Assembly: GCA_016186795.1 (NCBI GenBank)
Contig: JACPKY010000001.1
Span: 65,357-129,356 of the forward strand
DNA length: 64,000 bases
Source: Candidatus Gottesmanbacteria bacterium
GTDB lineage: Bacteria > Patescibacteriota > Microgenomatia > 2-02-FULL-39-11
Direction: 5' to 3'
Below are positions 13,061 to 46,422 of this stretch, piece after piece (the stretch's first letter is position 1; every line of letters begins with the position of its first letter). Both the position numbers and the translations under genes were made by a program. Below the pieces are notes generated by a model. It was not told the origin of the DNA and made no database searches. It saw only the letters and a list, made by a program, of their open reading frames with translations.

Positions 13061-13318
13061 CTATTGATTGATAACGTAATAGTCAATGAGTCGGCGTATC
13101 ATTGCTTGATAAGATGCTTTGTGTTTTTTGGCAACGCTCTTAAAAAAATCTAGGCTTTTCGAAGTCAACGTCAATGTTACGCGCGTTTTTTTCTCCTTAA
13201 GAATAAGATCTTCAGGCTTAGGGAGAAAATCGCTTACCACTCGTGCTTCAATTGGTTCGTTATTGTACCTGATTTTGCTTTTCATAGATTTTTTTCCCCT
13301 TTCTCCAGTAACCGGCAC
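13061..13318 (-). CDS. brnA: BrnA-type antitoxin (CopG/RHH-like)
   Basis: MKSKIRYNNEPIEARVVSDFLPKPEDLILKEKKTRVTLTLTSKSLDFFKSVAKKHKASYQAMIRRLID matches BrnA family antitoxins. Overlaps the 3' end of the upstream BrnT gene. The true start is probably the internal MKSKIRY at 13285. Confidence 0.6.
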   Translation of the reverse strand: MPVTGERGKKSMKSKIRYNNEPIEARVVSDFLPKPEDLILKEKKTRVTLTLTSKSLDFFKSVAKKHKASYQAMIRRLIDYYVINQ

Positions 13319-13544
13319 CGATTATTCGAATACGGTTTGCCCGGTAGGTAAATCGGACAGTTAGTACACCTCCTTTCACTTTTCCAAAAACATAATATCT
13401 TTTTTCTTTTTTACTATGTGATGTATCTTCGGCAACAATACGCATTGGATCTATAAATGCATATTGAGCCGTCTCAAAATCTACTCCATGTTTTTCTACA
13501 TTTTCACTATTTTTCTTCTCATCCCACTCAAATGAAGTTTTCAT
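13260..13544 (-). CDS. brnT: BrnT-family toxin (DUF497 ribonuclease toxin)
   Basis: FEWDEKKNSENVEKHGVDFETAQYAFIDPMRIVAEDTSHSKKEKRYYVFGKVKGGVLTVRFTYRANRIRIIGAGYWRKGKKIYE follows the DUF497/BrnT consensus (F.WD..KN..N..KHGV.F.EA...F.DP; ...IRIISAR...E...YE). Confidence 0.7.
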   Translation of the reverse strand: MKTSFEWDEKKNSENVEKHGVDFETAQYAFIDPMRIVAEDTSHSKKEKRYYVFGKVKGGVLTVRFTYRANRIRIIGAGYWRKGKKIYEKQNQVQ

Positions 13545-13645
13545 ATAGGTATGACTATTTTTCATATATTTTAGCATATATTTATATGAAATATCAATCC
13601 ACAAAAAAGCACCAAAATAAGAAATCTGCTACAATAGTCTAGCTT

Positions 13646-18378: not shown

Positions 18379-18816
18379 TTATTTGTACTTTGCCAGAGGT
18401 ACAACTCTTACGCCTTTGATTTTTGATTGATGCTTGGGGTTATCGGTAACAAGAATGGCGTCCTCTTTTTTAGCCAAAGCTGCAAATGCAGCATCATAAT
18501 ATGTGAACTTTTTATCACCAAGTAACCTCACTTCATATGCCATTTGATAAGTTTGAAAAGCTAGGTTAGGAGTTTCAGAAATAAACTCTATCGGAAGACT
18601 GGAGATTGTTCCCAAATTTTGATTAGCTTGATTCACTTCTATACCCTTTTTAAGTATCGCATTTCCCACCTCATATTTAGCAAGTTCGGGAGCTATCAAA
18701 ATCGCTTTTCCCGCCTGGGCATCCACAAGTATTTGGTTTGCCTCTTTTATATTCGATTCGTTATTCTGCTTGACCCATTTAACCATCACCGAACTATCCA
18801 CTACTACTTTTTTCAT
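18379..18816 (-). CDS. vapC: PIN-domain toxin (VapC-like)
   Basis: KKVVVDSSVMVKW (Asp-containing N-terminal strand), ...YDAAFAALAKKEDAILVTDN (conserved acidic residues of the PIN fold). Follows an antitoxin gene with a 2-nt spacing. Confidence 0.75.
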   Translation of the reverse strand: MKKVVVDSSVMVKWVKQNNESNIKEANQILVDAQAGKAILIAPELAKYEVGNAILKKGIEVNQANQNLGTISSLPIEFISETPNLAFQTYQMAYEVRLLGDKKFTYYDAAFAALAKKEDAILVTDNPKHQSKIKGVRVVPLAKYK

Positions 18817-18818
18817 AT

Positions 18819-19100
18819 CTATCTACGTGCTTCTCTATCTCTTGCTATAAATTTTGAAAGGCTACCTTTATATTTACCTTTATAAGAACGGGCTAAATTT
18901 ATTTTCCTCCATAACTCATCCCAGTCGACCTTTTTTTGACTTGAAGTATGGGGTCTTATAATGACTTCATCCTCTTTTTCGGCAATAATAGTTACCGCCG
19001 ATTGGGGAGACATCCAATCTCTACTCTTTCTTATAGATTCGGGTACTGTAAGCTGTCCTCGATCTCTTATAATGACTGTTTCCTGAATTTGCGTGTTCAT
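18819..19100 (-). CDS. vapB: AbrB/SpoVT-type antitoxin (VapB-like)
   Basis: VIIRDRGQLTVPESIRKSRDW is a swapped-hairpin AbrB/MazE-like DNA-binding motif. Immediately upstream of the PIN gene. Confidence 0.65.
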   Translation of the reverse strand: MNTQIQETVIIRDRGQLTVPESIRKSRDWMSPQSAVTIIAEKEDEVIIRPHTSSQKKVDWDELWRKINLARSYKGKYKGSLSKFIARDREARR

Positions 19101-21356: not shown

Positions 21357-21647
21357 TTACCCATACAATTCTTCGTGCGTTCCCAGTAGAACAAAGTAAG
21401 CAACTACTTCATCTCCAACCCATATCTCTTTATAGATTGCTCGGTAATCTGAGGTGATATTTATACTTCTTTGACTCGAATATTCTCGATGGAGTAAGTG
21501 ATTATTTAGTTGAGGATCGTATGGATTTTTTGAAAAAAGTTTTATCCTCTCTCTTACTAATATTCTAATTCTGACGTCTACTTTTTTGAGTTTTTCATAA
21601 AACTCAGGGTCAAAAGCGACATTCATATTCCCTGTTTGTCTAACCAT
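21357..21647 (-). CDS. relE: RelE/ParE-superfamily toxin (YafQ-like)
   Basis: Size (96 aa), basic composition and a C-terminal ...YRAIYKEIWVGDEVVAYFVLLGTHEELY block typical of RelE/YafQ toxins. Overlaps the upstream antitoxin gene by 25 nt. Confidence 0.6.
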   Translation of the reverse strand: MVRQTGNMNVAFDPEFYEKLKKVDVRIRILVRERIKLFSKNPYDPQLNNHLLHREYSSQRSINITSDYRAIYKEIWVGDEVVAYFVLLGTHEELYG

Positions 21648-21907
21648 GCAACTGCCTCTTTTCCAGTTTTAAAAATTGGAGAGTGTTTTCCCTCTTTCCA
21701 ATTCTTTTCTGCTTGTTTTAAGATGGCACGCGTTTTTTTATTGGGAATTTCGGGAGTAGTAGTGAAAGTAACCGTTTTTGTTTTGACAAGCTGGCGAAGA
21801 TACGCATTGACCAAAGAGCTCAAACTAAATCCCAACTCTTTGGCAATCTTTTGGGCTTTGGCTTTTATCTGCGGTTCTGTTTTGGTGATAATGACTGCGG
21901 TATTCAT
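21623..21907 (-). CDS. relB: RelB/DinJ-family antitoxin
   Basis: MNTAVIITKTEPQIKAKAQKIAKELGFSLSSLVNAYLRQLVKTKTV is the RHH-like RelB/DinJ N-terminal fold. Upstream partner of the RelE-like gene. Confidence 0.6.
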   Translation of the reverse strand: MNTAVIITKTEPQIKAKAQKIAKELGFSLSSLVNAYLRQLVKTKTVTFTTTPEIPNKKTRAILKQAEKNWKEGKHSPIFKTGKEAVAWLDKQGI

Positions 21908-34079: not shown

Positions 34080-34391
34080 GAAACCACAAGAAAAGGAGGA
34101 ACTATCGGTAACTGAAAAAATTCTCGCGTGTAACACTGTACACGCACATAACAACTTCAGTAATAACGGTGAAGCAGGTTAAGGCAGGAATTATCTGCCT
34201 CAGGATCTGCCTGAGGAGGTCTGCAACTCAATGCGGCCGTTGATCCAGAAAAATCTCAATGTATCAGAGAAGATGCCTCAAAGCATTTCGTCGCCCATTT
34301 CCAGATGCTGCACTTCTCTGATACATTATTCTTTCCTTCTCTTTCCAATAGAATTGCACTTCCGCGTCTATTTATGATACACTCGTATCCT

Positions 34392-34610
34392 ATGCAATCG
34401 CCAACAATTATGATGCCGGATTTCAAGGGAAATCCAGTGGTATTTCTCAAAGAAGTACGTGCAGAACTCGTAAAAGTGATCTGGCCAGGACGAGCGGAAG
34501 TTATAAAATTAACAATAGTTGTCATCATGATTTCATTGGTATTCGGACTCTATATCGGCGGACTTGATTTGCTTTTTACCAAACTTACTGATGTACTTAT
34601 AAAACGGTAA
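34392..34610 (+). CDS. secE: Preprotein translocase subunit SecE
   Basis: ...NPVVFLKEVRAELVKVIWPGRAEVIKLTIVVIMISLVFGLYIGGLDLLF is the SecE signature (K.l.Ev.aElkKV.WP.r.e) plus a single TM. Stop overlaps the nusG start, which is the canonical arrangement. The start codon among the M30/M36/M37 candidates is uncertain. Confidence 0.65.
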   Translation: MQSPTIMMPDFKGNPVVFLKEVRAELVKVIWPGRAEVIKLTIVVIMISLVFGLYIGGLDLLFTKLTDVLIKR

Positions 34611-35263
34611 TGCCAGACGAATCAAACAAGACAAAACAAGCACAAACAGGAGAAATTCCTCAAAAAGAAGAACAAAAACCTGAGGTAAAAACTCCTACTG
34701 AAGCTCTCCCTGAAGAAAAACCGCAACCTGCGCCAAAACCGCCCGGACAATGGTTTGTCGTCCATACGTATTCTGGCCATGAAAATAAAGCAGCTGAAGC
34801 TCTTAAACAGCGCATCAAGACAATGAATTTAACTTCCAACGTTTTTGATGTTGTTGTCCCAACGCGAAATATTGTCGTAGTCCGTCATGGAAAAAAGGAA
34901 GAAACAAAAGAGAAAATCTTCCCCGGATACATCCTTGTCAATATGAACCTCAATGACGAAACGTGGCTTGCGGTACGCACAACTCCGGGAGTTACGGCAT
35001 TCGTCGGAGTTGGCAATAAGCCAACACCTATTTCTGATAAAGAGGTTGATGCTATCCTTAAATTTACCCAACTTGCAGCTCCCAAATTCAAAACTAAATT
35101 TAGTAAAGGCGAAGCTGTTAAAATTATTGACGGACCATTTGTCGACTTTCTGGGAACAGTTGATGTCATCGATGAAGATAAAGGAAAAGTCAAGATTTTG
35201 GTATCAATCTTTGGCCGCGAAACCCCAGTTGAGTTAGACTTCCTCCAGGTCGCCAAACTGTAA
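34610..35263 (+). CDS. nusG: Transcription termination/antitermination factor NusG (with about 45-aa K/E/P-rich N-terminal extension)
   Basis: NGN domain: GQWFVVHTYSGHENKAAEALKQRIK...FPGYILVNMNLNDETWLAVRTTPGVTAFVG. KOW domain: FSKGEAVKIIDGPFVDFLGTVDVIDEDKGKVKILVSIFGRETPVELDFLQVAKL. Confidence 0.85.
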   Translation: MPDESNKTKQAQTGEIPQKEEQKPEVKTPTEALPEEKPQPAPKPPGQWFVVHTYSGHENKAAEALKQRIKTMNLTSNVFDVVVPTRNIVVVRHGKKEETKEKIFPGYILVNMNLNDETWLAVRTTPGVTAFVGVGNKPTPISDKEVDAILKFTQLAAPKFKTKFSKGEAVKIIDGPFVDFLGTVDVIDEDKGKVKILVSIFGRETPVELDFLQVAKL

Positions 35264-35384
35264 AGATTCATTTCCTGTGAATTGTGTCATATTTATATCC
35301 TATATTTTCCGTGAAAACTTTTCTATAGGTTATTATGTGGATAATTTATCCATGACTTATAATAATTTCTCCCAAAAACGCTCT

Positions 35385-35651
35385 CTATTCCCATACTTCC
35401 AATCCTTTATAAATAAGTTGTTTTAAGAAAGATTGGTATGGAATATCCATTTTATGAGCCCGAATCTTGACCCGATCAATGAGTCCAACTGGAAGTCTTA
35501 TTGTGATGGGACGGGTTGTAAGCCGGAGATTGGGAAAACTGACTCTTACCGCTTTGGAATAATCCACATACTCGGTAGAATCGTGCGTTTGCCACCATTC
35601 TCGTTCTTCTTTCTCATTGTCAAATTTTGGAATCTTTTTCAACTTCTTCAT
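35385..35651 (-). CDS. brnA: BrnA-type antitoxin (second copy)
   Basis: ...REWWQTHDSTEYVDYSKAVRVSFPNLRLTTRPITIRLPVGLIDRVKIRAHKMDIPYQSFLKQLIYKGL fits the BrnA consensus. Overlaps the 3' end of the BrnT gene by 32 nt. Confidence 0.6.
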   Translation of the reverse strand: MKKLKKIPKFDNEKEEREWWQTHDSTEYVDYSKAVRVSFPNLRLTTRPITIRLPVGLIDRVKIRAHKMDIPYQSFLKQLIYKGLEVWE

Positions 35652-35943
35652 ATTGCCTCCTTTCTTTTTTATTTGCAGCTCTTACAGAAATAATTCTGAT
35701 AAAAATTCCCCGTATGGTAAATATTGCGAATAGTCTTTTCCGATTGACTGTTTTTCCTATGGCGATAAACCGTTCTTCTTTTTCTGAATGGGATACGTCT
35801 TCAAGGAAGAGAATCTGTTCATCCAGAAATATTTCTTCTGCTTCCCTCGGTGTAATTCCATGCTTCTGATAGCTTTTATCAATATTTCCCTTGTCCCATT
35901 CAAATTGAAAAGGCTTCTGGAAATCAACCATTGTACATATCAT
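35620..35943 (-). CDS. brnT: BrnT-family toxin (DUF497), second copy
   Basis: FQFEWDKGNIDKSYQKHGITPREAEEIFLDEQILFLEDVSHSEKEERFIAIGKTVNRKRLFAIFTIRGIFIRIISVRAANKKERRQYEE matches the DUF497 consensus including IRIISAR...ER..YE. Confidence 0.7.
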   Translation of the reverse strand: MICTMVDFQKPFQFEWDKGNIDKSYQKHGITPREAEEIFLDEQILFLEDVSHSEKEERFIAIGKTVNRKRLFAIFTIRGIFIRIISVRAANKKERRQYEEVEKDSKI

Positions 35944-36115
35944 ATATGTACACTATTTACCTGTCAAGTTTTTCGCTTCTCCTCTTTCATTTTTTATCCC
36001 TCTATGATATAGTTACCCTACCTCGGAAAACTCTGAGGAAGTTGGCCTAAACGGCAACGAGATACCTCTTTACGCTTTCCATTTTTGTATCCGTTGTATC
36101 CGTTTCAATTTAATC

Positions 36116-36538
36116 ATGGCAAAAAAAGTAAAGACGATCATTAAACTCAACCTCCCAGCCGGTGAAGCAACTCCTGCACCCCCTGTTGGTCCGGCTCTTG
36201 GACAGCATGGGGTCCCTATTATGGATTTTGTCCGCGCGTATAACGAAAAAACCGCAAAGCTCAAAGGACAGATAATCCCTGCTGTCATTACCGTCTACGT
36301 TGATCGAACATTTGCGTTTATCACGAAACTCCCGCCGGTTGCCGAGATGATCAAAAAGAAGCTTGGCATCCAGAAAGGATCTGGAAAAACAGGTCGGGAA
36401 CAGGCAGGGATACTCAAAAAGGCCCAAGTTGAGGAAATTGCCAAGGAAAAAATGGCAGATTTAAACTGTGACACGGTTGAGTCTGCAGTAAAAGTTGTAG
36501 AAGGAACAGCAAGGAGCATGGGAGTGAAAGTAGAATAA
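36116..36538 (+). CDS. rplK: 50S ribosomal protein L11
   Basis: [33 protein letters not shown]...; full-length, about 140 aa. Confidence 0.9.
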
Positions 36539-36539
36539 T

Positions 36540-37412
36540 ATGGGTAAAATACGTGTTTCAACATTAGGTAGTGAGGAAGAGCAAGAGATTCGAAATAAGC
36601 AGAAAACTCGCCGTGAAGAGAAAAAGAAGCGAGTACAAGCTGCAAAAGTCCATATTTCCGGGATGAAAGGTGGCGAGAGAGTCAAAAGTGTCGGCGCAGA
36701 ATCTGAAGAAGAAATAGAAAGACTGGCAAAATTGACAGAAGAAGTAGAAAAAGACCAGGCAGAAGGTATTAAAATCGGTGAAAAGCCGGAAAAAAAGAAA
36801 AAGTTTAAGGTTAGAGAGCGTTCCCCCCGCTATAAGCAGGCAGCAATGAAAGTAGATCAGGGGAAGATATATCCGATTTCTGAAGCACTACCTCTTCTTC
36901 GGAATATTTCGCTAACCTCATTTGATGCAACGGTTGAACTCCATATTAATACTACGGAGAAAGGTCTGCGGGGGGCGGTCACCCTCCCTCACGGGACAGG
37001 AAAAGAAGTTCGTGTAGAAATTGCCAACACTACGACAATTGACAAAATTATTGAAAAAGTAGAAAAAGGCACAATTGACTTTGATGCTCTCATCGCCCAC
37101 CCTCAAGTGATGCCCCAACTTGCCAAAATCGCACGGTATTTAGGCCCAAAAGGTCTTATGCCCAACCCAAAAGCCGGAACAATCTCACAAACTCCAGAAA
37201 AAGTTGCAGAGAAGCTTAGAGGCGGAGAAATCCAGTGGAAAACAGAATCAGATTTCCCTCTCATTCACATGCGCCTAGGGAAACTCTCGTTTAAAGACAA
37301 CCAACTTGAGGAAAACTTCAAAACGCTCATCAAAGCAATCGGTGAGACAAAAATCAAGGCCATCACCCTTAAGTCAACGATGAGTCCTGGAATAAAAGTG
37401 CAAGTAGAATAG
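36540..37412 (+). CDS. rplA: 50S ribosomal protein L1 (with about 85-aa K/E-rich N-terminal extension if the first ATG is used)
   Basis: L1 core begins at ...RYKQAAMKVDQGKIYPISEALPLLRN... and continues through ...GPKGLMPNPKAGT.... The ORF starts 2 nt after the rplK stop with MGKIRVSTLGSEEEQEIRNKQKTRREEKKKR.... Confidence 0.85.
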   Translation: MGKIRVSTLGSEEEQEIRNKQKTRREEKKKRVQAAKVHISGMKGGERVKSVGAESEEEIERLAKLTEEVEKDQAEGIKIGEKPEKKKKFKVRERSPRYKQAAMKVDQGKIYPISEALPLLRNISLTSFDATVELHINTTEKGLRGAVTLPHGTGKEVRVEIANTTTIDKIIEKVEKGTIDFDALIAHPQVMPQLAKIARYLGPKGLMPNPKAGTISQTPEKVAEKLRGGEIQWKTESDFPLIHMRLGKLSFKDNQLEENFKTLIKAIGETKIKAITLKSTMSPGIKVQVE

Positions 37413-37480
37413 TCATAACCTCAAACCCGTCCGCCTACTGGCGGATCCACCATGAGTCCGGGGATAAAAGTCCAATTCCC
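37380..37480. repeat. Degenerate direct duplication of the rplA 3' terminus flanking a hairpin (insertion scar)
   Basis: 37380-37408 atgagtcctggaataaaagtgcaagtaga versus 37452-37480 atgagtccggggataaaagtccaattccc (about 80% identity over the first 20 nt). Between them lies the hairpin gtccgcc-tact-ggcggat (37428-37446). Confidence 0.5.
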
Positions 37481-37509
37481 TTGACAATTCCTACCAACAA
37501 TCATATACT
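37481..37509 (+). promoter_or_regulatory. Sigma70-like promoter for the vapB-like/PIN cassette
   Basis: TTGACA, a 17-nt spacer, then TATACT, starting immediately after the duplicated rplA terminus. Confidence 0.45.
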
Positions 37510-37531
37510 GAGTATGAATTCATTTCATACT

Positions 37532-37759
37532 ATGGATACTCAACGCATCACCATCAGTCTTCCTGGATACATCTATAAACGTCTCAGAAAGACAATACCG
37601 TCTCGTGGTATAAGCCAATTTGTGGCAAAAACCGTGGAAAAAGAACTTATGGATATGAAAGCAGAAGACCCTATCCAAGGATTTTTTGAACTTCAGAATC
37701 ATTTTCCAAAACTGACCACAAAACAAATTCTCAACGCAATCAGAAAAGGAAGAACGTGA
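37532..37759 (+). CDS. RHH (CopG/Arc-like) antitoxin
   Basis: MDTQRITISLPGYIYKRLRKTIPSRGISQFVAKTVEKEL is the ribbon-helix-helix N-terminal beta-strand plus helices. Its stop overlaps the start of the PIN gene by 4 nt. Confidence 0.5.
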   Translation: MDTQRITISLPGYIYKRLRKTIPSRGISQFVAKTVEKELMDMKAEDPIQGFFELQNHFPKLTTKQILNAIRKGRT

Positions 37760-38169
37760 AGATTTTTATTGTGGATGCTTCTATACTGCTCCGAACTCTC
37801 TCAAATAAAGGTGGTACCGCTGACATTTTCCTTCGGAAACTTCTTGCAGACCAAAAAAGCAATTCTACTCATCTCTATTCCACTTCATTTCTGATGATAG
37901 AAGTTGCAAATGGATTACGTTTCTCTCTTGGCGATGAAAAATTTGCTAGAGATTCCCTAAGACGGCTTTCAATTCTGCCAATTCGGTATATCGAAATAAC
38001 CAGTTCTTATCTCGAAGAAGCGCTACGGTGGTCCTATACGTACAAAACAACCGTCTACGACAGTATCTATCATGTCGTAGCAAAAATGCTTGATGGGACG
38101 TTTCTGACATGCGATGACGAGTATTACCAGAAAGCAAAATCAGTCGGGAATATCAAGCTTCTCAGTTAA
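37756..38169 (+). CDS. vapC: PIN-domain toxin (VapC-like), second copy
   Basis: MKIFIVDASILL (first conserved Asp), ...FLMIEVANGL..., ...IYHVVAKMLDGTFLTCDDEYY (conserved C-terminal Asp). Confidence 0.7.
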   Translation: MKIFIVDASILLRTLSNKGGTADIFLRKLLADQKSNSTHLYSTSFLMIEVANGLRFSLGDEKFARDSLRRLSILPIRYIEITSSYLEEALRWSYTYKTTVYDSIYHVVAKMLDGTFLTCDDEYYQKAKSVGNIKLLS

Positions 38170-38582
38170 CATTTGACTTCTCTTCCCTACTTTTTTACAA
38201 TACTTTCTTAGTAGTGACAATGATGTCCTCCCAGTAACATGGGAGGCTTATTTTAAGGAAGGCACTTTAACATCTGCATACCCAAATAGCCAAAACCCGG
38301 AACGCAGTAATGAGGAAATAACGTCGTACTAACTGATCTCAGCTTTATCTCTTGGGGTCCTGCCGCGCGGCAGCCCAAAAATCATCCACAAGGGGTCCCC
38401 GATTTTCGGGCTCCCGCCTTGCGTCACCCCTACATCTGTGTTGATGTCAGTTTATTACGGTTGAATAGAAGTGCTTATTTTCTCTCTGCTGCGTTCTTGG
38501 TTCATGGCGAAGATGTATCGTGGGCGGGTATACATTTGAAACGTGAACAAAGAAAGCAGCGATTCCAAGGAGGAACCAAACC

Positions 38583-38798
38583 ATGAAAAACCCGATTTTG
38601 ATCCTGGCACTTGGAGCAGCCATAGTTGCTCTTGCGCTGACTCAACTTGGCGGTGCTACTCTACCTACAAACGAACCGAATTGGAGATGTAAACCAAACG
38701 GTCACCGCTTCTATTCGGCGACGAAACCTGCCAAGTGCCCTTCATGCTATTCCGGCGACATCGAACCGTTCAGCTATCCTGGCGCGAAGAAAACCTAA
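38583..38798 (+). CDS. Small secreted Cys-containing protein (71 aa) on a GC-rich segment
   Basis: Signal peptide MKNPILILALGAAIVALALTQLGGA, then CKPNGH...CPSCYSG (zinc-ribbon-like C..H...CxxC). Preceded by a GGAGGAAC RBS. Confidence 0.3.
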   Translation: MKNPILILALGAAIVALALTQLGGATLPTNEPNWRCKPNGHRFYSATKPAKCPSCYSGDIEPFSYPGAKKT

Positions 38799-39175
38799 CC
38801 GTCGCCCGGCGCGATTCCAATTGCCACAAAACCCGCCCGTTTGTATTCAATCTCAGTATAATTGCAAGGTAGGAGATACAGAAATCTCAAGTATCATCAT
38901 AATCATCTGTATCTCCTGTCTGAAGGGAGGTTTTATTTTTTTTTGCGGTATGCAGTTTTTTCCGGTTTTATTGGGGTTGATTTTTGAAGGATCAAAGCAA
39001 TTGATCCCTCTTGCAATAACCCCAATAAGACTTAGAGCCTGTTTGAGAAGTCCCTTTCGTTACGAAAGGTTGCAGGTTCAAGCGAAAACAGCGCATCATG
39101 ACGAAGGAGTATACGAAGGTATACTTCTAGGAATGATAAGCTGTTTGCAGCTGAATCCTGCAATCTTGCAGTAGA

Positions 39176-40126
39176 ATGCGACTTTTCAAACAGGCTCTTA
39201 AATCAAAAATCCCCTTAATTCCTTTTGCGGAATCTGAGGGGATTTTTGCTGTTGATTTCATTGGTTTGAACCTCTACAATGCGCCCATGCCAGCCGAAAG
39301 ACTTGCTGCTTTACCTATTGATGAAATTCTAGAGTACGAACAGATACGTCGAGATGCCCTCCAATCTCGACTTCTTGCTGTATATCGCTGGATTCCTGAT
39401 GTACTTGGACATGATATGCGATTTCCTGTAGGTTATTTTGCCGATATCGGAGGATACGATCTTTTCCAAACTGGGACTATCGCACAATTTGCCCACCATA
39501 TTACAGAAATTGATATTGATAAAGATATCATGGAGAAAGGCAAAAGTCGTCCTGAAGTCCAGGAGCTTATTAAAGCTGGAAGTGTAGATTTTGTTGTCCA
39601 TGATGCTCAGAATTTACCCATGATCCCTTCCCGCTCACAAGATATTACTGCACTTGTAGAAGTTTTGGGTGCAGGGCTTGAGGGCCCTGAAGAATTTCAA
39701 ACTGTCTATAACGTTATTCACGAAGCTCAAAGGATAACCGCTCCTCATGGCGCCTTGGTATTAACTGCCAAAAATGCTGTCCTTGCGCTTCATCTAGCCG
39801 GACTTGGAGTCCATATGGAAAAAGGTATCCCGGTTCATATAGAACAGCTGGAGTTTTTAAACCAGATGTTTGGAAAAGTAACAGTATATGGACAAATAAA
39901 TTATTTCAATGCATATGATGATGGAAGAGATAGATTATGGCTAAGACCTCCTCCGGGAACAGCCGCTTATGATTCCAAAGGTCGTAGATATATGAGATAC
40001 ACAGATGATGACCTTATTCCCCGTCTTTACCTTCCTGAGGCTGATGTAACTCCTGCATTTATGGTATTAGTCTGTCAATACCCTATAGATTTGGAAGAAC
40101 GGCATATAGGTATTGACAACACGTAG
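39176..40126 (+). CDS. Hypothetical protein, possible class I SAM-dependent methyltransferase fold
   Basis: YFADIGGYDLF (motif I-like hhDhGxG), ITEIDIDKD (acidic end of beta2), DFVVHDAQNLP (motif II-like). Ends 4 nt before the IS1595 transposase gene. GC-rich. Confidence 0.35.
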   Translation: MRLFKQALKSKIPLIPFAESEGIFAVDFIGLNLYNAPMPAERLAALPIDEILEYEQIRRDALQSRLLAVYRWIPDVLGHDMRFPVGYFADIGGYDLFQTGTIAQFAHHITEIDIDKDIMEKGKSRPEVQELIKAGSVDFVVHDAQNLPMIPSRSQDITALVEVLGAGLEGPEEFQTVYNVIHEAQRITAPHGALVLTAKNAVLALHLAGLGVHMEKGIPVHIEQLEFLNQMFGKVTVYGQINYFNAYDDGRDRLWLRPPPGTAAYDSKGRRYMRYTDDDLIPRLYLPEADVTPAFMVLVCQYPIDLEERHIGIDNT

Positions 40127-40150
40127 TAGATGTGTTATACTGAGGCTAAC

Positions 40151-41041
40151 ATGAAACAGTTTAGCCTCAAAACATTTTTGCGAAAATATCCTAATGACGA
40201 AGCGTGCCTAGAGGAGATTAAGAATACCCGTTGGCCTCAAGGTATTACTTGCCCCAAATGCCAAAAAATCACCAAATTCTATAAAATAACAGACCGCACA
40301 GCTTACTCTTGTGAGTTCTGTAGGACGCAGGTATTCCCATTAGCAGGTACTATCTTTGAGAAAAGCACAGTATCCCTTAGATTATGGTTTTATGCCATGT
40401 TTTTGATGATTAAGACACGGTCTGGTATATCTGCAAAACAACTAGAGAGAGAATTAGGAGTTTGTTACAAAACCGCCCACCGCATATTTAAGCAAATCCG
40501 TATGCTTATGGACGAAGGAAACGGAGATAAATTGACAGGAAATGTAGAAGTAGATGAAACATTTATCGGCGGAAGGGGTGTGAATAGAAGATATAAGCCT
40601 AATTTTAGTGAGATACCAAAAGAAGTAGTTATGGGTATGATACAAAGAAACGGAAAAGCATATTTAAGACATATACCAAACACAGGTAAATGGACACTTC
40701 TAAAACAGATAAGAGATAATGTTGATGTAAAAGCACGAGTTATTACAGACCAATGGTTAGCTTATGGTAGTTTACCCAAATATGGATATAAACACGATTT
40801 TGTAAATCATCAGGAAACCTATGTAAAAGGCGATATTCATACACAAAACGCAGAGATGATGTGGAGTATCTTAAAAAGAGATATTTACGGAGTTTATCGC
40901 CATGTATCGGCTCAATATTTACAAAATTATGCCAACGAATATGCCTGGCGATACAACCATAGAAACAGTGAAGATATGTTTACTGATTTACTCAAGCAGA
41001 TTGCTTTGGTGAAGGTCGTGAAGGCGAAACAGCTCGTCTGA
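40151..41041 (+). CDS. IS1595-family (ISXO2-like) transposase
   Basis: N-terminal transposase zinc-ribbon (CPKCQKITKFYKITDRTAYSCEFCRTQ), then the DDE_Tnp_IS1595 core (VEVDETFIGG..., ...ITDQWLAYGSL..., ...HQETYVKGDIHTQNAE...). Confidence 0.8.
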   Translation: MKQFSLKTFLRKYPNDEACLEEIKNTRWPQGITCPKCQKITKFYKITDRTAYSCEFCRTQVFPLAGTIFEKSTVSLRLWFYAMFLMIKTRSGISAKQLERELGVCYKTAHRIFKQIRMLMDEGNGDKLTGNVEVDETFIGGRGVNRRYKPNFSEIPKEVVMGMIQRNGKAYLRHIPNTGKWTLLKQIRDNVDVKARVITDQWLAYGSLPKYGYKHDFVNHQETYVKGDIHTQNAEMMWSILKRDIYGVYRHVSAQYLQNYANEYAWRYNHRNSEDMFTDLLKQIALVKVVKAKQLV

Positions 41042-41122
41042 GAAGTTCTAAGAAGTCTTTTTTTTCAATCGTTGGATTTTTCTTTAATTGTCCGTTCTTA
41101 AGAGAGAATTTTGTTTTTTTCA

Positions 41123-41356
41123 TTATTTACATTCCTTAATCCATTCTTCTTCAGGAATACCTGTTCTTTTCACCATTTCTTTTACGTTTTTCCAATGAAT
41201 AGTTTTATAATTAAAGATTACTTGAACACTTTTAGTTATACCATTTTCGTTTTTTATATATGTTTCGTGTGTTCCTTCTCTATTTATAAATTCCCACCCT
41301 CTATTAATTAGAAACCTAGCCGCTTTTTCTGGTCTTAGATTGTTAACCTTTGTCAT
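41123..41356 (-). CDS. hicA: HicA-family mRNA-interferase toxin
   Basis: LRPEKAARFLINRGWEFINREGTHETYIKNENGITKSVQVIFNYKTIHWKNVKEMVKRTGIPEEEW follows the HicA/YcfA pattern (L.K.GW....GSH..Y.....G......P.H....I..G.L..IL...GI). Confidence 0.7.
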   Translation of the reverse strand: MTKVNNLRPEKAARFLINRGWEFINREGTHETYIKNENGITKSVQVIFNYKTIHWKNVKEMVKRTGIPEEEWIKECK

Positions 41357-41733
41357 TATTGGAATGCAATTCGTTGTCCTTCATAGGGAAGATTTATGAG
41401 AGTAAAATAAGAGGGTTTTTTATTTTTGGCGATAGGGTTCTTTTTGTTAAAAGACCTATTAATTAATTCACTCGCATATTCAATTTCTTTTAACTTGTCT
41501 AAGAATCTTTTTTCTGGAATTTGATTTAAATAGTCTTCAGAAAGCTTTTTTTTCCTGACTGTTTTTAAATACGACAAAGATGCCTCTTCAATACTTTGTT
41601 TGAGCTTTTTAGGATCAGAGTCATATTCTACTAAATTTAAATTCAAACAAACTGCAACATAATCTTCATCTTCCTTATACATTATGTAAGTAAAAAATCC
41701 TTTATCTTTAGTATTTAAGTAAGTTTTAAGCAT
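41356..41733 (-). CDS. hicB: HicB-like antitoxin (UPF0150 fold)
   Basis: FTYIMYKEDEDYVAVCLNLNLVEYDSDPKKLKQSIEEASLSYLKT resembles the HicB N-terminal RNase-H-like fold (Y.a...kE.dgy.a.cPeL.v...g.T.eEA..nl.EA). Its stop overlaps the hicA start. Confidence 0.55.
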   Translation of the reverse strand: MLKTYLNTKDKGFFTYIMYKEDEDYVAVCLNLNLVEYDSDPKKLKQSIEEASLSYLKTVRKKKLSEDYLNQIPEKRFLDKLKEIEYASELINRSFNKKNPIAKNKKPSYFTLINLPYEGQRIAFQ

Positions 41734-42081: not shown

Positions 42082-42590
42082 GTACGTTGATAAGTGTTCA
42101 CATGCAGCACTTCCTTCCTGTTTCTTGATTGAAGGTATGAAACACCTGAAGCTTGGTAATGTAGAAAAGGGGAAAGTTAACTTGGCTGTCTATCAAGGCA
42201 GGTTCCAAATATTATTTTGCAAATATCTAAAACTCCTGATTCCGCTGGTACAAGCTGGCTTACAGAAGGCCAATAAACCAGCGGAACCAAGAGTCTTAGT
42301 TCTGTAATTTGCTTGTTTTTTAAAGTGCTATTTTTCTAGAATCATTTTATCAAAAAAGCAGATGCAGTCAAGTAGTTCTGTGATATTTCTTCATAAATAG
42401 AAAAATGAGGCTAGATAAAAGTACTTTTCATTTACGTGTTCTCCCTACATATGTGCCGGAAGAACCTATTGCTAAAGTTGAACCCTTATGATATAAATAC
42501 CTTTATCCAAAGACAGTAGGCAACCATAAGACCTACCGAGGAAAAATTAGTATCTAGTATTTGGTATCAAGTATTTAGAAGATTAATTTA

Positions 42591-42613
42591 CCTCGGAAAT
42601 CCGAGGTTTTTTG
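42591..42613 (+). terminator. Hairpin plus T-run immediately upstream of rplJ (leader attenuator or terminator)
   Basis: cctcggaaatccgaggttttttg: stem CCTCGG/CCGAGG, loop AAAT, then T6. It ends 20 nt before the rplJ start. Confidence 0.4.
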
Positions 42614-42632
42614 TTATTTGTTTTCTGAAACT

Positions 42633-43181
42633 ATGCCATCACAGAAAAATAAAGACTTAGTATTAGTTTTAAAAGAAAAGCTCTCCAAAGCGTCAACTCT
42701 TTTCCTTACTGACTACCGGGGACTTACTCATCAGCAATTGGAACAACTTAGAAAGTCACTAAAAAAAGTCAAGGCGGAATATATCGTTGCTAAAAATACT
42801 CTTTTGAAAATTGCTTTGAAAGAGGATAAGCGCAAAGGTTTGGATGAAGAATCACGAACAAAACTAGAAGAAAAGCTTCAGGAACCAACTGCAACGCTTC
42901 TTTCATACGGTGACGAAATGGAAGCGATTAAAACCCTTGATACATTCATAAAATCAGCCCAAATTCCCAAAATAAAAATAGGATTTTTTGCCGGAAAAAT
43001 CGCTACAGAAATGGACTTTAAATCCCTTGCAAATCTCCCAAGCCGAGATGTACTTCTGGCAACTCTTGTTTCTCGCCTACAATCCCCTCTTTATGGGCTT
43101 CATCATGCCATGAGATGGAATCTGAGTAAATTGGTATATGCGTTAGATGCTGTTGCCAAGAAAAGGGCCATAAATTCGTAA
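42633..43181 (+). CDS. rplJ: 50S ribosomal protein L10
   Basis: MPSQKNKDLVLVLKEKLSKASTLFLTDYRGLTHQQLEQLRKSLKKVKAEYIVAKNTLLKIAL is the L10 N-terminal domain. The ORF extends 5 codons upstream, but MPSQ is the likely start. Confidence 0.85.
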   Translation: MPSQKNKDLVLVLKEKLSKASTLFLTDYRGLTHQQLEQLRKSLKKVKAEYIVAKNTLLKIALKEDKRKGLDEESRTKLEEKLQEPTATLLSYGDEMEAIKTLDTFIKSAQIPKIKIGFFAGKIATEMDFKSLANLPSRDVLLATLVSRLQSPLYGLHHAMRWNLSKLVYALDAVAKKRAINS

Positions 43182-43209: not shown

Positions 43210-43611
43210 TTGATGGCAAAACATACAAAAGATGAACTATTAAAAGCTGTTGAGGAAATGACAGTCTTGGAACTAGCTGATTTTGTGAAATCGCTTGAGG
43301 AGAAATTCGGCGTTACAGCAGCAGCTCCTGTTGCAGTTGCCGCGTCTCCACAAGCAGGTGGTCCGCCAACTGGCGGAGGTGAAGCAGCTCCTGAACAAAC
43401 CTCATTTAATGTTGTTTTGGCAAATGCCGGAGCCAATAAAATCTCCGTCATTAAAGCAGTTCGGGAACTAGTTCCCACACTTGGCCTTCAGGAAGCAAAA
43501 ACACTCGTTGAATCTGCACCAAAGGAAGTTCTAACTGGTGTGAACAAAAAAACCGCAGAAGAAGTAAAGACAAAACTCACAGCAGCTGGTGCAACTGTTG
43601 AGTTGAAGTAA
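43210..43611 (+). CDS. rplL: 50S ribosomal protein L7/L12
   Basis: [34 protein letters not shown], then an Ala/Pro hinge, then [77 protein letters not shown] upstream. Confidence 0.9.
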
Positions 43612-43639
43612 TTCTCGACAGTTTGTATAATCGCGTATT

Positions 43640-43662
43640 CCCCTCTTATTAGAGGGGTTTTA
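43640..43662 (+). terminator. Rho-independent terminator after rplL
   Basis: cccctcttattagagggg followed by tttt: 7-bp GC-rich stem, TATT loop, then a T-run. Confidence 0.6.
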
Positions 43663-43674
43663 CGTATAATTTTT

Positions 43675-44370
43675 ATGATAGAACAATTGGATCGACCCCC
43701 TATAGAATACCTACCCCTTACTCCTATTGTCATTAATAATCAACAAGGCAACCTTCATCAAGATGTATTACCGTTTGTTCAATATTTTCTAGAACTATAT
43801 AACAGAGGCCGAAGACTTCAAGGAAAGGAGCGAGCTCTATTTCCTGGTGTAATTTCTCGCGTTGAGATTCAATTAGGTCAGGCAAGCATAGCACAAACAG
43901 AACCTCCATATATATTTGCCATTGGAGCAAGTGGTACTACTGGATCTGCCGGAGGACACAAGAGAGAATTTGCCAATATTATTGGTTGGGACGGTCAACG
44001 TGCACAAGCCACATCAGCAAAAACTGTGCGAGTAAACTTTACTCACCAACAAAATATTCGTCAACAAGAAGGAGCTATTATAGAACTTGCCACATGGGAA
44101 AATATTCTTGACCGTATTATCCAAGCTACAGATGAAGAAATTTGGAGAAGGCATTTACAAGCTACCAAAGGTACACTCTTGAGCGTCCCTTATGCAGAAA
44201 TTATGGCGCAAGATAACGAATTAAAACTAACACGGGAGTGGCTGGAAAATAATTGGAATCTTCTACCAGATTTTATAGGGACTGGAAGAACTTCAGCGGG
44301 ATTTTCAGAATATTTTATATCTGCTGCTGCTTTTCGAAATGCTCCTGCAGTAGTAGTATACATACCATAA
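43675..44370 (+). CDS. Hypothetical protein (231 aa) occupying the position where rpoB normally follows rplL
   Basis: No recognised motif. Gly/Thr/Ser-rich centre (AIGASGTTGSAGGHK). Confidence 0.4.
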   Translation: MIEQLDRPPIEYLPLTPIVINNQQGNLHQDVLPFVQYFLELYNRGRRLQGKERALFPGVISRVEIQLGQASIAQTEPPYIFAIGASGTTGSAGGHKREFANIIGWDGQRAQATSAKTVRVNFTHQQNIRQQEGAIIELATWENILDRIIQATDEEIWRRHLQATKGTLLSVPYAEIMAQDNELKLTREWLENNWNLLPDFIGTGRTSAGFSEYFISAAAFRNAPAVVVYIP

Positions 44371-44558
44371 CAATCTATCTCGAAGTGATTGCGTATCTTT
44401 GATGTCTATTGACAACATTCAAATCCATATGTTACAGTAACAACCGTATTGATGCGCTCATGGTAATGGTGAGCGTCCTAGAAGCATAAACTGTCCGTTT
44501 TATTAATTTTTTAAACTAGCTGCAAACAGACAGTTTTCAAAAAGGAGTAAACCTACAT

Positions 44559-44765
44559 ATGGCATTCGGTGATGAATGGCCGGACCTTTTAACTGTCCGG
44601 GAAGTTGCAAAAATTCTCCGTGTTTCCCCCCTCACGATCAAACGGTGGGGTAAGCGTGGAAAACTTCCTGCGATTAGAATCAATTCTCGAGGTGATCGAA
44701 GATACAAGAAAGAAGCGGTCCTTTGGCTCTTGGGGCTTCAACAAAAGGGAACATCAAACAGTTAA
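44559..44765 (+). CDS. Excisionase-family HTH DNA-binding protein (HTH_17/MerR-like)
   Basis: LLTVREVAKILRVSPLTIKRWGKRGKLPAIRINSRGDRRYKKEAV matches the excisionase/XisF-type HTH (LT..E.A..L.VS..T..RW...G.LP....G...R....). Confidence 0.6.
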   Translation: MAFGDEWPDLLTVREVAKILRVSPLTIKRWGKRGKLPAIRINSRGDRRYKKEAVLWLLGLQQKGTSNS

Positions 44766-45634
44766 TTTTCTTCTTTTTCCGAAATTACCTTCTTTAATTC
44801 CTCTGCTGCTTTGGAAGGATCAATGATATTTACGGATAGTCCAGTACCTAACTCAAATCCAGCTCTGTGGATAAGACGTGGAATAATCCGGATAAACCAA
44901 TCTTTCGCATGATGAATATAAAAGTTATAGGCAAATGTTTTCTCTCCATGAATCTTTTTCACTTTTGCATCTTCATACAGTACTGCTAATCGTTTGATAC
45001 TCCGCTGTAATATCGTTGCCAAATCTTCCAACTCTTCATTTTGGATTTCAGAAAATGTGGTGCCGAGCTTTTTGGGAGAAATCCATACTTCATACGGCCA
45101 TTGGGAAAAATCAGGGCAATAGGTCACAAAGTACTGGTTATCTTCAACTACATTCATAAGAGGTTCACGAACAAGTGCATCAAGGTTAATCTGGTGAGGA
45201 ATAACTACAAGTTGAGAGTGTGGATGCGAGAGGGAAGCCCCGGAATGCTCACCATGATTATGGAAAATCATAACCTGACCATTTTGCATATTTGCCTGGA
45301 ATCGGACTCTATAGACATTGAGAAGATCAATAACGAGAGATACATCTGTGGACTCAATATCTTTTTCGTGATCCGGGCTATGGATGATGACCTCATGGAT
45401 ATCGGTGATGGGAAATAAGTTGGGAACAACTCGTATTTTCCATCCGGGTTTATCTTTTTCTCCAGATCCTACTCTCATAATTTCAGACGGCGTCATGGAT
45501 TCATTTCCGCTACAAAAAGGACACGCATGTTGTTTTGGGGGTACAACTTCTTTCTGTTCATCCGGTCGATCAACTCGAGAAGGCGCAATAACAATCCACC
45601 GTTGCGTTTTGATATCAGGTACAAATTTAGCCAT
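44762..45634 (-). CDS. galT: Galactose-1-phosphate uridylyltransferase-like (HIT superfamily, GalT family)
   Basis: HACPFCSGNESMTPSEI (Zn-binding CxxC...), GWKIRVVPNLFP, HEVIIHSPDHEKD, HGEHSGASLSHPHSQLV (HPH.Q active-site histidine motif). Confidence 0.7.
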   Translation of the reverse strand: MAKFVPDIKTQRWIVIAPSRVDRPDEQKEVVPPKQHACPFCSGNESMTPSEIMRVGSGEKDKPGWKIRVVPNLFPITDIHEVIIHSPDHEKDIESTDVSLVIDLLNVYRVRFQANMQNGQVMIFHNHGEHSGASLSHPHSQLVVIPHQINLDALVREPLMNVVEDNQYFVTYCPDFSQWPYEVWISPKKLGTTFSEIQNEELEDLATILQRSIKRLAVLYEDAKVKKIHGEKTFAYNFYIHHAKDWFIRIIPRLIHRAGFELGTGLSVNIIDPSKAAEELKKVISEKEEN

Positions 45635-45654
45635 AGCGTTGGTATGAAGATCGG

Positions 45655-46422
45655 TTAGTTTTTCTCAAAGTAGAGGGTAACGGTTGAGGTAATTGTTTGT
45701 ACACCGGGCTCAAATGATGGGCCGCCACCACCTCCTGCTTCTGCAGCATACCTGGCTGATTGATACGGGAGAACAATTCCATTTGGACTTACCTCGACAA
45801 TATTAGTAATTTTGCCCAATCGGATCCCTAAAGAACTTGCTAGCTGCTGCGCTTGCTCTCTTGCATTGGCAATTGCTTTGTCCCGAGCGAGCTTGCGATA
45901 CTTCTCAGGTTTATCAATAACAAAGCGCGTCCCCTGAATCTGATTTGCACCTGCTTTTGTTGCTTCGTCAACAACTTTTGTAGCTAAATCTGGATCCCCC
46001 ACTTTGATTGTCAACATGGCGTTCCCGTTATAACCACTTATGCGATTTTGATTATTCTCATAGACGTAATTTGGGTAAACTGAGTAGTTTGTGGTTTTAA
46101 TGTTTTGGGTATCAATCCCCAGACTTTTCATGGCGGCAATTATTTTGTTATTAACCGTTGTGAGTGTCTGCTGTGCAGCTTCTGTTGTTGCTGCATTACT
46201 AACAGCAATCCCTGCATCGATATAAACTGTATCGGGAACTGCATCCACTTTCCCCTCTCCAACGACAGCAAGCTCTGTCGATTTTGTGGTTGTTGTGATA
46301 GTTATCGGGTAACTAACATCGAATGTTTTAATGATAATAAGAATCAAAAAGATGGCAAAGAAAAAGGTGAAGTACGAGAGGAGTTTTTCTGCCAGATTTA
46401 AATCTTTTACATTCATCAACAT
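45655..46422 (-). CDS. SIMPL/DUF541-family secreted protein
   Basis: N-terminal TM/signal. Two-domain DUF541 pattern with ...GNAMLTIKVGDPDLATKVVDEATKAGANQIQGTRFVIDKPEKYRKLARDKAIANAREQAQQLASSLGIRLGKI.... Confidence 0.6.
   Translation of the reverse strand: MLMNVKDLNLAEKLLSYFTFFFAIFLILIIIKTFDVSYPITITTTTKSTELAVVGEGKVDAVPDTVYIDAGIAVSNAATTEAAQQTLTTVNNKIIAAMKSLGIDTQNIKTTNYSVYPNYVYENNQNRISGYNGNAMLTIKVGDPDLATKVVDEATKAGANQIQGTRFVIDKPEKYRKLARDKAIANAREQAQQLASSLGIRLGKITNIVEVSPNGIVLPYQSARYAAEAGGGGGPSFEPGVQTITSTVTLYFEKN

Follow-up and report, generated by a model that had tools for sequence, protein, structure and literature searches.

A displaced copy of the rplA tail beside a toxin-antitoxin cassette in a Candidatus Gottesmanbacteria genome, and its possible origin by tail-restoring integration

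We analyzed a 64-kb stretch of the genome of a Candidatus Gottesmanbacteria bacterium, a member of the candidate phyla radiation (CPR); this stretch is called the window, and coordinates are positions in it unless another sequence is named. Within the window, toxin-antitoxin (TA) gene pairs lie in the cluster formed by nusG, rplK-rplA and rplJ-rplL, and directly after rplA, the gene for ribosomal protein L1, there is a second, diverged copy of the last codons of this gene, split by a small hairpin. The sequence of this second copy (copy 2; copy 1 is the current rplA end) indicates that it is a former coding tail of rplA and a genuine recombination scar, not a duplicated target site. Displaced gene tails are known as a general kind; this one has an unusual form, split by a hairpin, and no integrase is encoded in cis. 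The explanation that we favor, with a probability of about one half, is a tail-restoring, att-like integration, in which the older rplA 3' end was displaced by DNA that brought a replacement end with it. The genes of the locus run in the order secE, nusG, BrnA/BrnT (minus strand), rplK, rplA, antitoxin, PIN toxin, Zn-ribbon protein, methyltransferase, IS1595 transposase, a HicAB-like pair (minus strand), L10 leader, rplJ and rplL (Table 1).

The second rplA tail and its counterparts in relatives

The repeat is best stated as 37374-37403 against 37446-37475, where 25 of 30 positions match and the two copies are in frame at a spacing of 72 nucleotides (nt). An earlier note, made from the sequence alone, had rightly seen a copy of the rplA 3' end here and placed it at 37452-37480 versus 37380-37408, an alignment in which 22 of 29 positions match by count. 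A 24-mer with up to three mismatches was found only at the two tail-copy sites in the 64 kb, with none expected in shuffled sequences. All five differences between the copies are synonymous third-codon changes, both copies encoding STMSPGIKVQ (P=0.004 if the changes were uniform), and copy 2 continues with FP and a TGA stop (37482-37484) that falls inside the -35 box of the TA promoter. Almost all of 120 Gottesmanbacteria L1 proteins end in LKSTMSPGIK(V/I)Q(F/V/I)x, KVQF(x) being common; rplA itself is full length and carries this conserved end, and copy 2 matches the rplA end of L001 at 29 of 31 positions (L-numbers denote sequences of related lineages). It is because of its frame, its exclusively synonymous changes, its family-type L1 end and its match to L001 that we read copy 2 as a former coding tail. 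The two copies are both situated upstream of the TA cassette, with only 42 nt between them; neither the 24-mer search nor a tail profile found a further copy downstream of PIN.

This arrangement is not an assembly artefact, the sequence being identical in contigs from four sequencing runs. An assembly chimera was ruled out, as the exact words shared between the tail copies reach only 8 nt and four independent assemblies agree.

The small hairpin that had been noticed beside the repeat is present as TCCGCC-TACT-GGCGGA at 37430-37445, and it folds better than shuffled sequences (z=-2.25 as RNA, z=-3.3 as DNA). It belongs to a 20-nt insert that falls precisely at the junction of the K and S codons in the displaced tail; we refer to left piece, insert and tail together as a relic. 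The absence of a T-run rules out an intrinsic terminator, and transcription may read through from rplA across the hairpin. A genome-wide repeat was likewise discarded, since the hairpin is unique in the window, and comparing it with what follows rplA in five relatives gave no significant similarity. The earlier note had also raised the possibility that the repeat was a conserved L1/L10 leader element shared with relatives lacking the cassette. The cassette-free lineages L001, L008, L010 and L011 have no second tail, the region 37400-37490 has no Rfam match, and the repeat and hairpin are not part of the L10 leader (42489-42621), which lies 5 kb away.

The same architecture was found in two other lineages. 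When a profile of 11 functional tails was searched with nhmmer across 12 lineages, only three extra copies were detected, one in the window and two in L020. In L020 the rplA tail STMSPGIKIKFN and its stop are followed by a promoter and a gene for an AAA_14/DUF4143 ATPase, then by relic 1, by small open reading frames (ORFs) with a Phd-PIN pair, and by relic 2. Relic 1 comprises KN VTLK codons, a 38-nt hairpin insert and STMSPGIKVKFN with a stop, and relic 2 comprises an intact left piece ATCACCCTCAAA, a 22-nt insert and SAMSPGIKVKFA with a stop. In all three relics the insert stands exactly at the boundary between K and S and starts with CCYGYC. Both L020 relics end in S(T/A)MSPGIKVKF(N/A) and a stop, and each marks the right-hand end of a cassette that has a promoter, so that two cassettes are bounded by them. 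The last codons of the relics resemble those of the L1 of their own host (K-F in L020, Q in the window), and of the relic-versus-host differences pooled over the window and the two L020 relics, 19 of 22 fall at third positions (P=4e-7). In L017 the gene concerned is rpiB: its last 11 codons are repeated directly after a BrnTA cassette, beginning immediately after the BrnA stop and without a hairpin, and all four differences are synonymous.

The PIN cassette itself is found at the same place in L012, where secE-nusG-rplK-rplA is followed by the same promoter (cccTTGACAAT...TATAAT), operator, antitoxin and PIN genes, with homology extending to the start of the methyltransferase gene. Nucleotide identity between the window and L012 is 74% for the antitoxin and 63.5% for PIN, as compared with 71% for rplA and 76% for rplK and nusG, and L012 has neither a second tail nor a hairpin. 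Since this same-site copy has diverged as much as the core genes, the PIN cassette is an old resident of the rplA site, not a recent insertion.

Proposed tail-restoring integration and competing explanations

According to the explanation that we favor, DNA with a surrogate rplA tail would have recombined into rplA at the boundary between K and S, leaving the gene with a working end. The previous tail (~16 codons, split by the 20-nt hairpin insert) would have been displaced to the right end of the inserted DNA, where together with the left piece of the element and the hairpin it would form an attR-like junction. The latest event would have added only 72 bp, that is, the new tail, its stop, the left piece and the hairpin, the cargo having been lost or never having existed. 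The earlier rplA would have ended in ...KVQFP and a stop at the TA promoter with the cassette already there, because the displaced tail abuts this promoter and its stop lies inside the -35 box. What we observed is the anatomy, the coding-type divergence, the synteny with L012 and the same architecture in L020 and L017; how the events followed one another, and that a site-specific recombinase encoded elsewhere carried them out, we infer.

Streptococcal integrative and conjugative elements (ICEs) insert at the 3' ends of rplL, rpsI and rpmG, with direct repeats that correspond to the 3' end of the gene (PMC4701971). The likeness to elements integrating at 3' ends (ICEs, integrative and mobilizable elements, genomic islands) lies in direct repeats derived from the 3' end of a ribosomal protein gene, in incoming DNA that supplies the end and preserves the product, and, in L020, in repeats that bound inserted DNA and in elements stacked in tandem. 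Unlike in those elements, here there is no integrase in cis, the cargo amounts to 0 to 1.4 kb, the repeats are synonymously diverged instead of exact, the displaced copy is split by a hairpin, and the window repeats enclose no cargo. A resemblance to integron attC cassettes was also considered, as L020 has one- and two-gene cassettes arrayed with hairpin sequence at their downstream ends; in contrast to integrons, the cassettes have their own promoters, the repeat copies the tail of the host gene, and reading of the sequence revealed no IntI, attI or GTTRRRY core (no formal search was made).

Several observations weigh against a tail-restoring integration. Using Pfam, we found no integrase or recombinase in the L020 locus or encoded between 31 and 55 kb in the window, and the only mobility gene near the window locus encodes an IS1595 DDE transposase, 2.6 kb away. 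The window 'element' between the repeats has no cargo, and the TA cassette is not followed by any relic on its right-hand side. The three hairpin inserts, of 20, 22 and 38 nt, are unlike in length and sequence, the hairpin of L020 relic 2 is not significantly stable, and relics occur at only two of 11 rplA loci. Moreover, the TCA AC- codons of the current tail also occur in L010 and L011, the lineages with the closest L1 proteins, and either tail may therefore be the native one; because L011 carries TCA AC- without any insertion, 'TCA ACG' was abandoned as a mark of tails derived from an element. Neither a circular nor a viral form was detected, scans of viral contigs for the tail pattern giving 0 matches. 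In addition, blastn of 37374-38290 against phage and plasmid collections gave no match, and our literature search on TA or integrative elements in CPR bacteria, or on rplA as an integration site, yielded nothing specific.

The main rival is homology-facilitated illegitimate recombination, or else diverged alleles recombining unequally. Incoming DNA of a related genome would pair by homology at one end and be joined illegitimately at the other, leaving a stub of the rplA tail of one genome; neither a dedicated recombinase nor an att site would be needed. We judge it rather unlikely, even though much of the evidence suits it: the coding-type divergence of the copies is what two alleles from different lineages would give, no recombinase is present, and the L017 rpiB relic lacks a hairpin and starts directly at the BrnA stop. 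In the same direction points the mosaic of affinities, in which the block to the right of the relic (TA genes, post-PIN segments and methyltransferase start) matches L012, whereas L1 is closest to those of L010 and L011, which lack that block. Against it stand three relics in two genomes with the same K/S position, left piece and related CCYGYC insert; random illegitimate junctions are improbable because the same junction recurs in all three.

A tandem duplication of 72 bp that arose in situ by slippage and then drifted would agree with the 72-nt spacing that preserves the reading frame, but it is most improbable, as the units are unrelated beyond 30 nt and a decaying non-coding copy should have changed at codon positions 1 and 2 as well (a rough estimate for five of five changes at third positions is P ~0.02); the same hairpin-split build in L020 also speaks against it.

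We give slightly less credit still to the view that copy 2 and the hairpin form a functional cis-element, be it a 3' stabiliser or terminator, a mimic of an L1-binding site, or a 10-codon mini-ORF (MSPGIKVQFP) coupled to the TA promoter. The better-than-shuffled folding, the ATG start within copy 2 and its stop inside the -35 box would fit such a function; nevertheless, the hairpin has neither a T-run nor an Rfam match, L012, where the same TA pair is present, and nine other lineages lack the element, and the variation follows codon positions instead of base pairing.

Known transposon target duplications are far shorter than 30-39 nt. The least credible account, that of the earlier note, in which the RHH-PIN cassette transposed in and duplicated its target, can appeal to a direct repeat adjoining DNA that is evidently mobile, since homologous cassettes occur at unrelated loci, but it fails because both copies lie upstream of the cassette without flanking it, enclose 42 nt, are only 83% identical with differences that are all synonymous, as in coding-type divergence and not the decay of a duplication, have no partner downstream of PIN, and adjoin a cassette that is old at this site.

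If tail-restoring integration is the correct explanation, the rplA 3' end would be a recurrent entry point for accessory DNA in Gottesmanbacteria, and the displaced tails would be datable fossils of successive captures. Their sequence signature, a second and synonymously diverged copy of the last codons of a gene, could then be used to map the gain of defence and TA cassettes beside essential genes in streamlined CPR genomes, where few mobile elements are recognisable. A broader extension, which we regard as improbable, is a cassette-capture system of CPR bacteria in which essential genes (rplA, rpiB) would receive stacks of small, self-promoted defence or TA cassettes at their 3' ends, with a trans-acting recombinase using an att site that mimics the tail and contains a hairpin; it would be integron-like, without attI or IntI in cis, and the fossil tails would record the order of capture.

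Toxin-antitoxin cassettes between transcription units

Judging from their domains and layout, the BrnT-BrnA and antitoxin-PIN (VapBC-like) pairs are self-contained type II TA cassettes, and they are ordinary new members of known families. The BrnT/BrnA pair (35385-35943, minus strand), reported earlier between nusG and rplK, is confirmed by Pfam: BrnT reaches 80.5 bits with PF04365 (cut-off 34.5) and BrnA 98 bits with PF12441 (cut-off 28), the BrnA gene adjoining BrnT downstream with an overlap of 32 nt. Both Pfam domains, the toxin-first overlapping genes and a promoter of its own are as in described BrnT/BrnA systems; unlike in these, BrnA falls below the cut-off of the NCBIfam BrnA model (36 bits, E=5.7e-9, cut-off 60), and activity is only predicted. 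The -10 box of the BrnTA promoter overlaps the first BrnT ATG, the likely true start, from the sequence, being the ATG at 35931; the promoter region resembles that upstream of the L017 BrnTA.

Regarding the second pair, the PIN domain (PF01850, 37.9 bits, cut-off 23.6) and the partner ORF upstream of it, which overlaps it by 4 nt, are both real. The acidic residues D7, E49, D102 and D120 of PIN are invariant in 13 homologues; the NCBI name is VapC family, and the NCBIfam VapC equivalog model scores 14 bits, under its cut-off of 80. As in VapBC, there are thus a PIN domain with four conserved acidic residues, an upstream antitoxin gene overlapping by 4 nt and a palindrome at the promoter; in contrast to VapBC, the antitoxin matches no described family (none in Pfam, NCBIfam or PDB), and ribonuclease activity is only predicted. 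For the label ribbon-helix-helix (RHH), given to the antitoxin in the earlier note, no family match was found: the protein is putatively RHH-like, by its N-terminal motif RITISLPGYIYKRL and the order of its secondary structures, and its similarity to BrnA and RHH_5-like N-termini is at the level of motifs. An RHH fold was not established, given the lack of a family or PDB match and a poor AlphaFold2 model (pLDDT 60.7; helices at 12-21 and 24-41). Its start is the ATG at 37514 or 37532 and not 37481, where the TTG belongs to the -35 box.

The promoter TTGACA-17-TATACT (37481-37509) proposed for the PIN cassette was borne out; together with TTGACA-17-TATGAT of BrnTA (35967-35939, minus strand) it is the joint best of the region, both matching at 11 of 12 positions. 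It belongs to the PIN cassette, because at unrelated loci homologous cassettes have a promoter and operator arranged in a similar way (in L013, with the promoter region also shared by L016). L012 has the same arms of the operator-like palindrome (AGTATGAA and TTCATACT) around a different spacer, and in L013 this position is occupied by a related inverted repeat. As this palindrome covers the -10 box and the start codon, it fits autoregulation of the cassette by its antitoxin at a putative operator, as family knowledge would lead one to expect; likewise, PIN and BrnT would act as ribonuclease toxins neutralised by labile antitoxins and transcribed from their own promoters. In both cassettes an ATG lies 4-7 nt past the -10 box (35929-35944 and 37504-37516; the ATG is kept in L012), a spacing that suggests leaderless mRNAs.

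The TA pairs had been described as lying inside the ribosomal operon, where toxin expression could be coupled to ribosomal protein transcription. This view found no support: both cassettes have near-consensus promoters that are kept at unrelated loci, and BrnTA is antisense to the ribosomal genes and upstream of the proximal rplK promoter. BrnTA sits between transcription units, since the conserved post-nusG element and the rplK promoter and leader bracket it, its insertion point being just downstream of that element (35299-35363). No nusG or rplK relic was found around BrnTA. The PIN pair lies between rplA and rplJ in a loose sense, as the gap measures ~5.1 kb and rplJ begins 4.4 kb past the pair, with five further genes between them. 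The TA pairs 'inside' the cluster thus sit between transcription units, are self-promoted and are commonplace in the clade.

Our comparison covered the 11 lineages with rplA DNA (the window and L001, L008, L010, L011, L012, L018, L019, L020, L021 and L023). Both joints of the nusG / rplK-rplA / rplJ-rplL cluster are hot spots of variable genes in these 11 lineages. L011 alone runs from rplA through the L10 leader directly into rplJ, so that 10 of 11 have genes between rplA and rplJ or directly after rplA: L008 has one small gene in this gap, L001, L018, L019 and L021 have 2.7 to 7 kb of unrelated genes, L010 has a methyltransferase gene directly after rplA, and L020 and L023 have no rplJ within 7-10 kb of rplA. 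The nusG-rplK joint is equally variable, measuring 0.2 to 6.3 kb. In three of 11 lineages (the window, L012 and L020) rplA is followed by TA pairs, the 64 kb of the window include at least six TA loci, and L017 carries homologues of both cassette types inside a TIM-rpiB-...-PGK-GAPDH cluster. Owing to these three facts, TA cassettes by core genes are the norm in the Gottesmanbacteria group, and their presence in a ribosomal cluster is not unusual, contrary to what had been supposed.

Three other TA loci of the window are a second BrnT with a partner near tRNA-Thr (13061-13604), a PIN gene with a 93-aa partner by tRNA-Trp (18379-19100) and a YafQ/RelB-like pair (21357-21907); no gene-tail or tRNA relics were found beside them. 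In L017 (4601-5723), both TA cassettes have a perfect 29-nt repeat, GTATTCTAGCCAGTGTGTGTGGATGTCAA, ahead of their promoters, and each unit contains a small minus-strand ORF.

Map of the locus and further observations

The features of the locus are collected in Table 1.

Table 1. Features of the secE-rplL region, in window coordinates
Feature	Position	Strand	Basis
secE	34305..34610	+	PF00584 on identical gene in L004
nusG	34610..35263	+	PF02357; 80% aa identity to L012 nusG
Post-nusG conserved element	35299..35363	+	Alignment, blastn; 6 lineages
BrnA antitoxin (CopG_antitoxin)	35385..35651	-	PF12441 E=5.3e-28
BrnT toxin	35620..35943	-	PF04365 E=1.2e-22
BrnT-BrnA promoter TTGACA-17-TATGAT	35939..35967	-	11/12 match
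Probable proximal rplK promoter-like -10 box and L11-leader-like hairpin	35995..36115	+	Partly conserved with L001, L011, L012
rplK (L11)	36116..36538	+	PF03946/PF00298
rplA (L1), 290 aa	36540..37412	+	PF00687 E=1.9e-31; 120 homologues
Current rplA tail (copy 1), STMSPGIKVQVE and stop	37374..37412	+	
Relic left piece CATAACCTCAAA vs rplA consensus ATCACCCTCAAA (ITLK codons)	37414..37425	+	Compared with functional tails
Hairpin insert, 20 nt, CCCGTCCGCCTACTGGCGGA	37426..37445	+	Folding
Relic rplA tail (copy 2), STMSPGIKVQFP and stop	37446..37484	+	25/30 to copy 1; nhmmer E=4.7e-8
PIN-cassette TA promoter TTGACA-17-TATACT	37481..37509	+	11/12 match; homologous in L012, L013
Operator-like palindrome AGTATGAA-N5-TTCATACT	37511..37531	+	Same arms in L012; related inverted repeat in L013
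Antitoxin partner of PIN, 81 aa (75 aa from ATG 37532)	37514..37759	+	Conserved partner in L012-L017
PIN (VapC-like) toxin	37756..38169	+	PF01850 E=3.1e-9
Post-PIN promoter-like site TTGACT-17-TACAAT	38173..38201	+	10/12 match; kept in L012
Small protein, 71 aa, N-terminal hydrophobic segment and CxxC...CxxC Zn-ribbon	38583..38798	+	Weak rubredoxin-like match
Conserved structured block, 12-bp and 13-bp stem hairpins, terminator-like site 38911-38931	38871..39031	+	83% nt identity to L012
Methyltransferase-like protein	39176..40126	+	PF08241 E=1e-4; 5' end 77% nt identical to L012
IS1595-family transposase	40130..41041	+	PF12762/PF12760; NF033547 E=1.2e-53
HicA-like toxin, weak assignment	41123..41356	-	PF07927 E=0.0013, below cut-off
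Putative HicB-like partner ORF	41356..41733	-	Position only; no family match (Pfam, NCBIfam)
L10 leader	42489..42621	+	Rfam RF00557, 50.8 bits vs gathering score 44
rplJ (L10)	42618..43181	+	PF00466 E=5.4e-22
rplL (L7/L12)	43210..43611	+	Translation; 74% nt identity to L008 rplL

The post-nusG element, of ~65 nt, contains a palindrome of two DnaA-box-like 9-mers, TGTGGATAA and TTATCCACA (TGTGGATAA-N-TTATCCA(C/T)), followed by TATAAT. L1 has a K/E-rich N-terminal extension of ~93 aa (MGKIRVSTLGSEEE..., 36540-36820) that is kept in all 120 best L1 homologues, all of Gottesmanbacteria type, and the Pfam L1 model aligns only to residues 164-283 of the window protein. NCBI assigns the identical L1 protein to Candidatus Gottesmanbacteria. 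With Rfam, at both gathering and E-value thresholds, the L10 leader was the only match, the hairpin and relic, the post-PIN region and the rplK leader giving none.

Downstream of PIN, the stretch 38290-38580, upstream of the Zn-ribbon gene, is ORF-free, GC-rich and hairpin-rich, is not found in L012 and has no Rfam match; the Zn-ribbon protein (38583-38798) has no counterpart in L012 either. The non-coding block at 38871-39031 (4352-4540 in L012) is conserved beyond its neighbouring genes. Within it, the 12-bp stem hairpin overlaps a hairpin that resembles a terminator and has a T-run, and the 13-bp stem (TTTTATTGGGGTT...AACCCCAATAAAA) surrounds a variable interior; the block could be an attenuator or a small miniature inverted-repeat transposable element. 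A 25-nt inverted repeat (39034-39058 and 39174-39198, 88% complementary) encloses 115 nt immediately before the methyltransferase start and overlaps this start.

Five lineages have methyltransferase genes between rplA and rplJ (39176-40126 in the window, 1935-2723 in L010, 4620-4653 in L012, 9952-10857 in L019 and 6681-7391 in L021), and these genes are only distantly related to one another, those of the window and L010 sharing 26% aa identity; one of the methyltransferases in this gap weakly matches PrmA, the L11 methyltransferase. The IS1595 transposase gene begins 4 nt past the methyltransferase stop, and neither convincing terminal inverted repeats nor a target duplication were found at 40126-41110. 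The genes rpoB and rpoC do not come next after rplJ-rplL; their place is taken by a 231-aa protein without a known family and a GalT-like gene (43612-45700), and a GalT-like gene lies downstream of rplL in L019 too.

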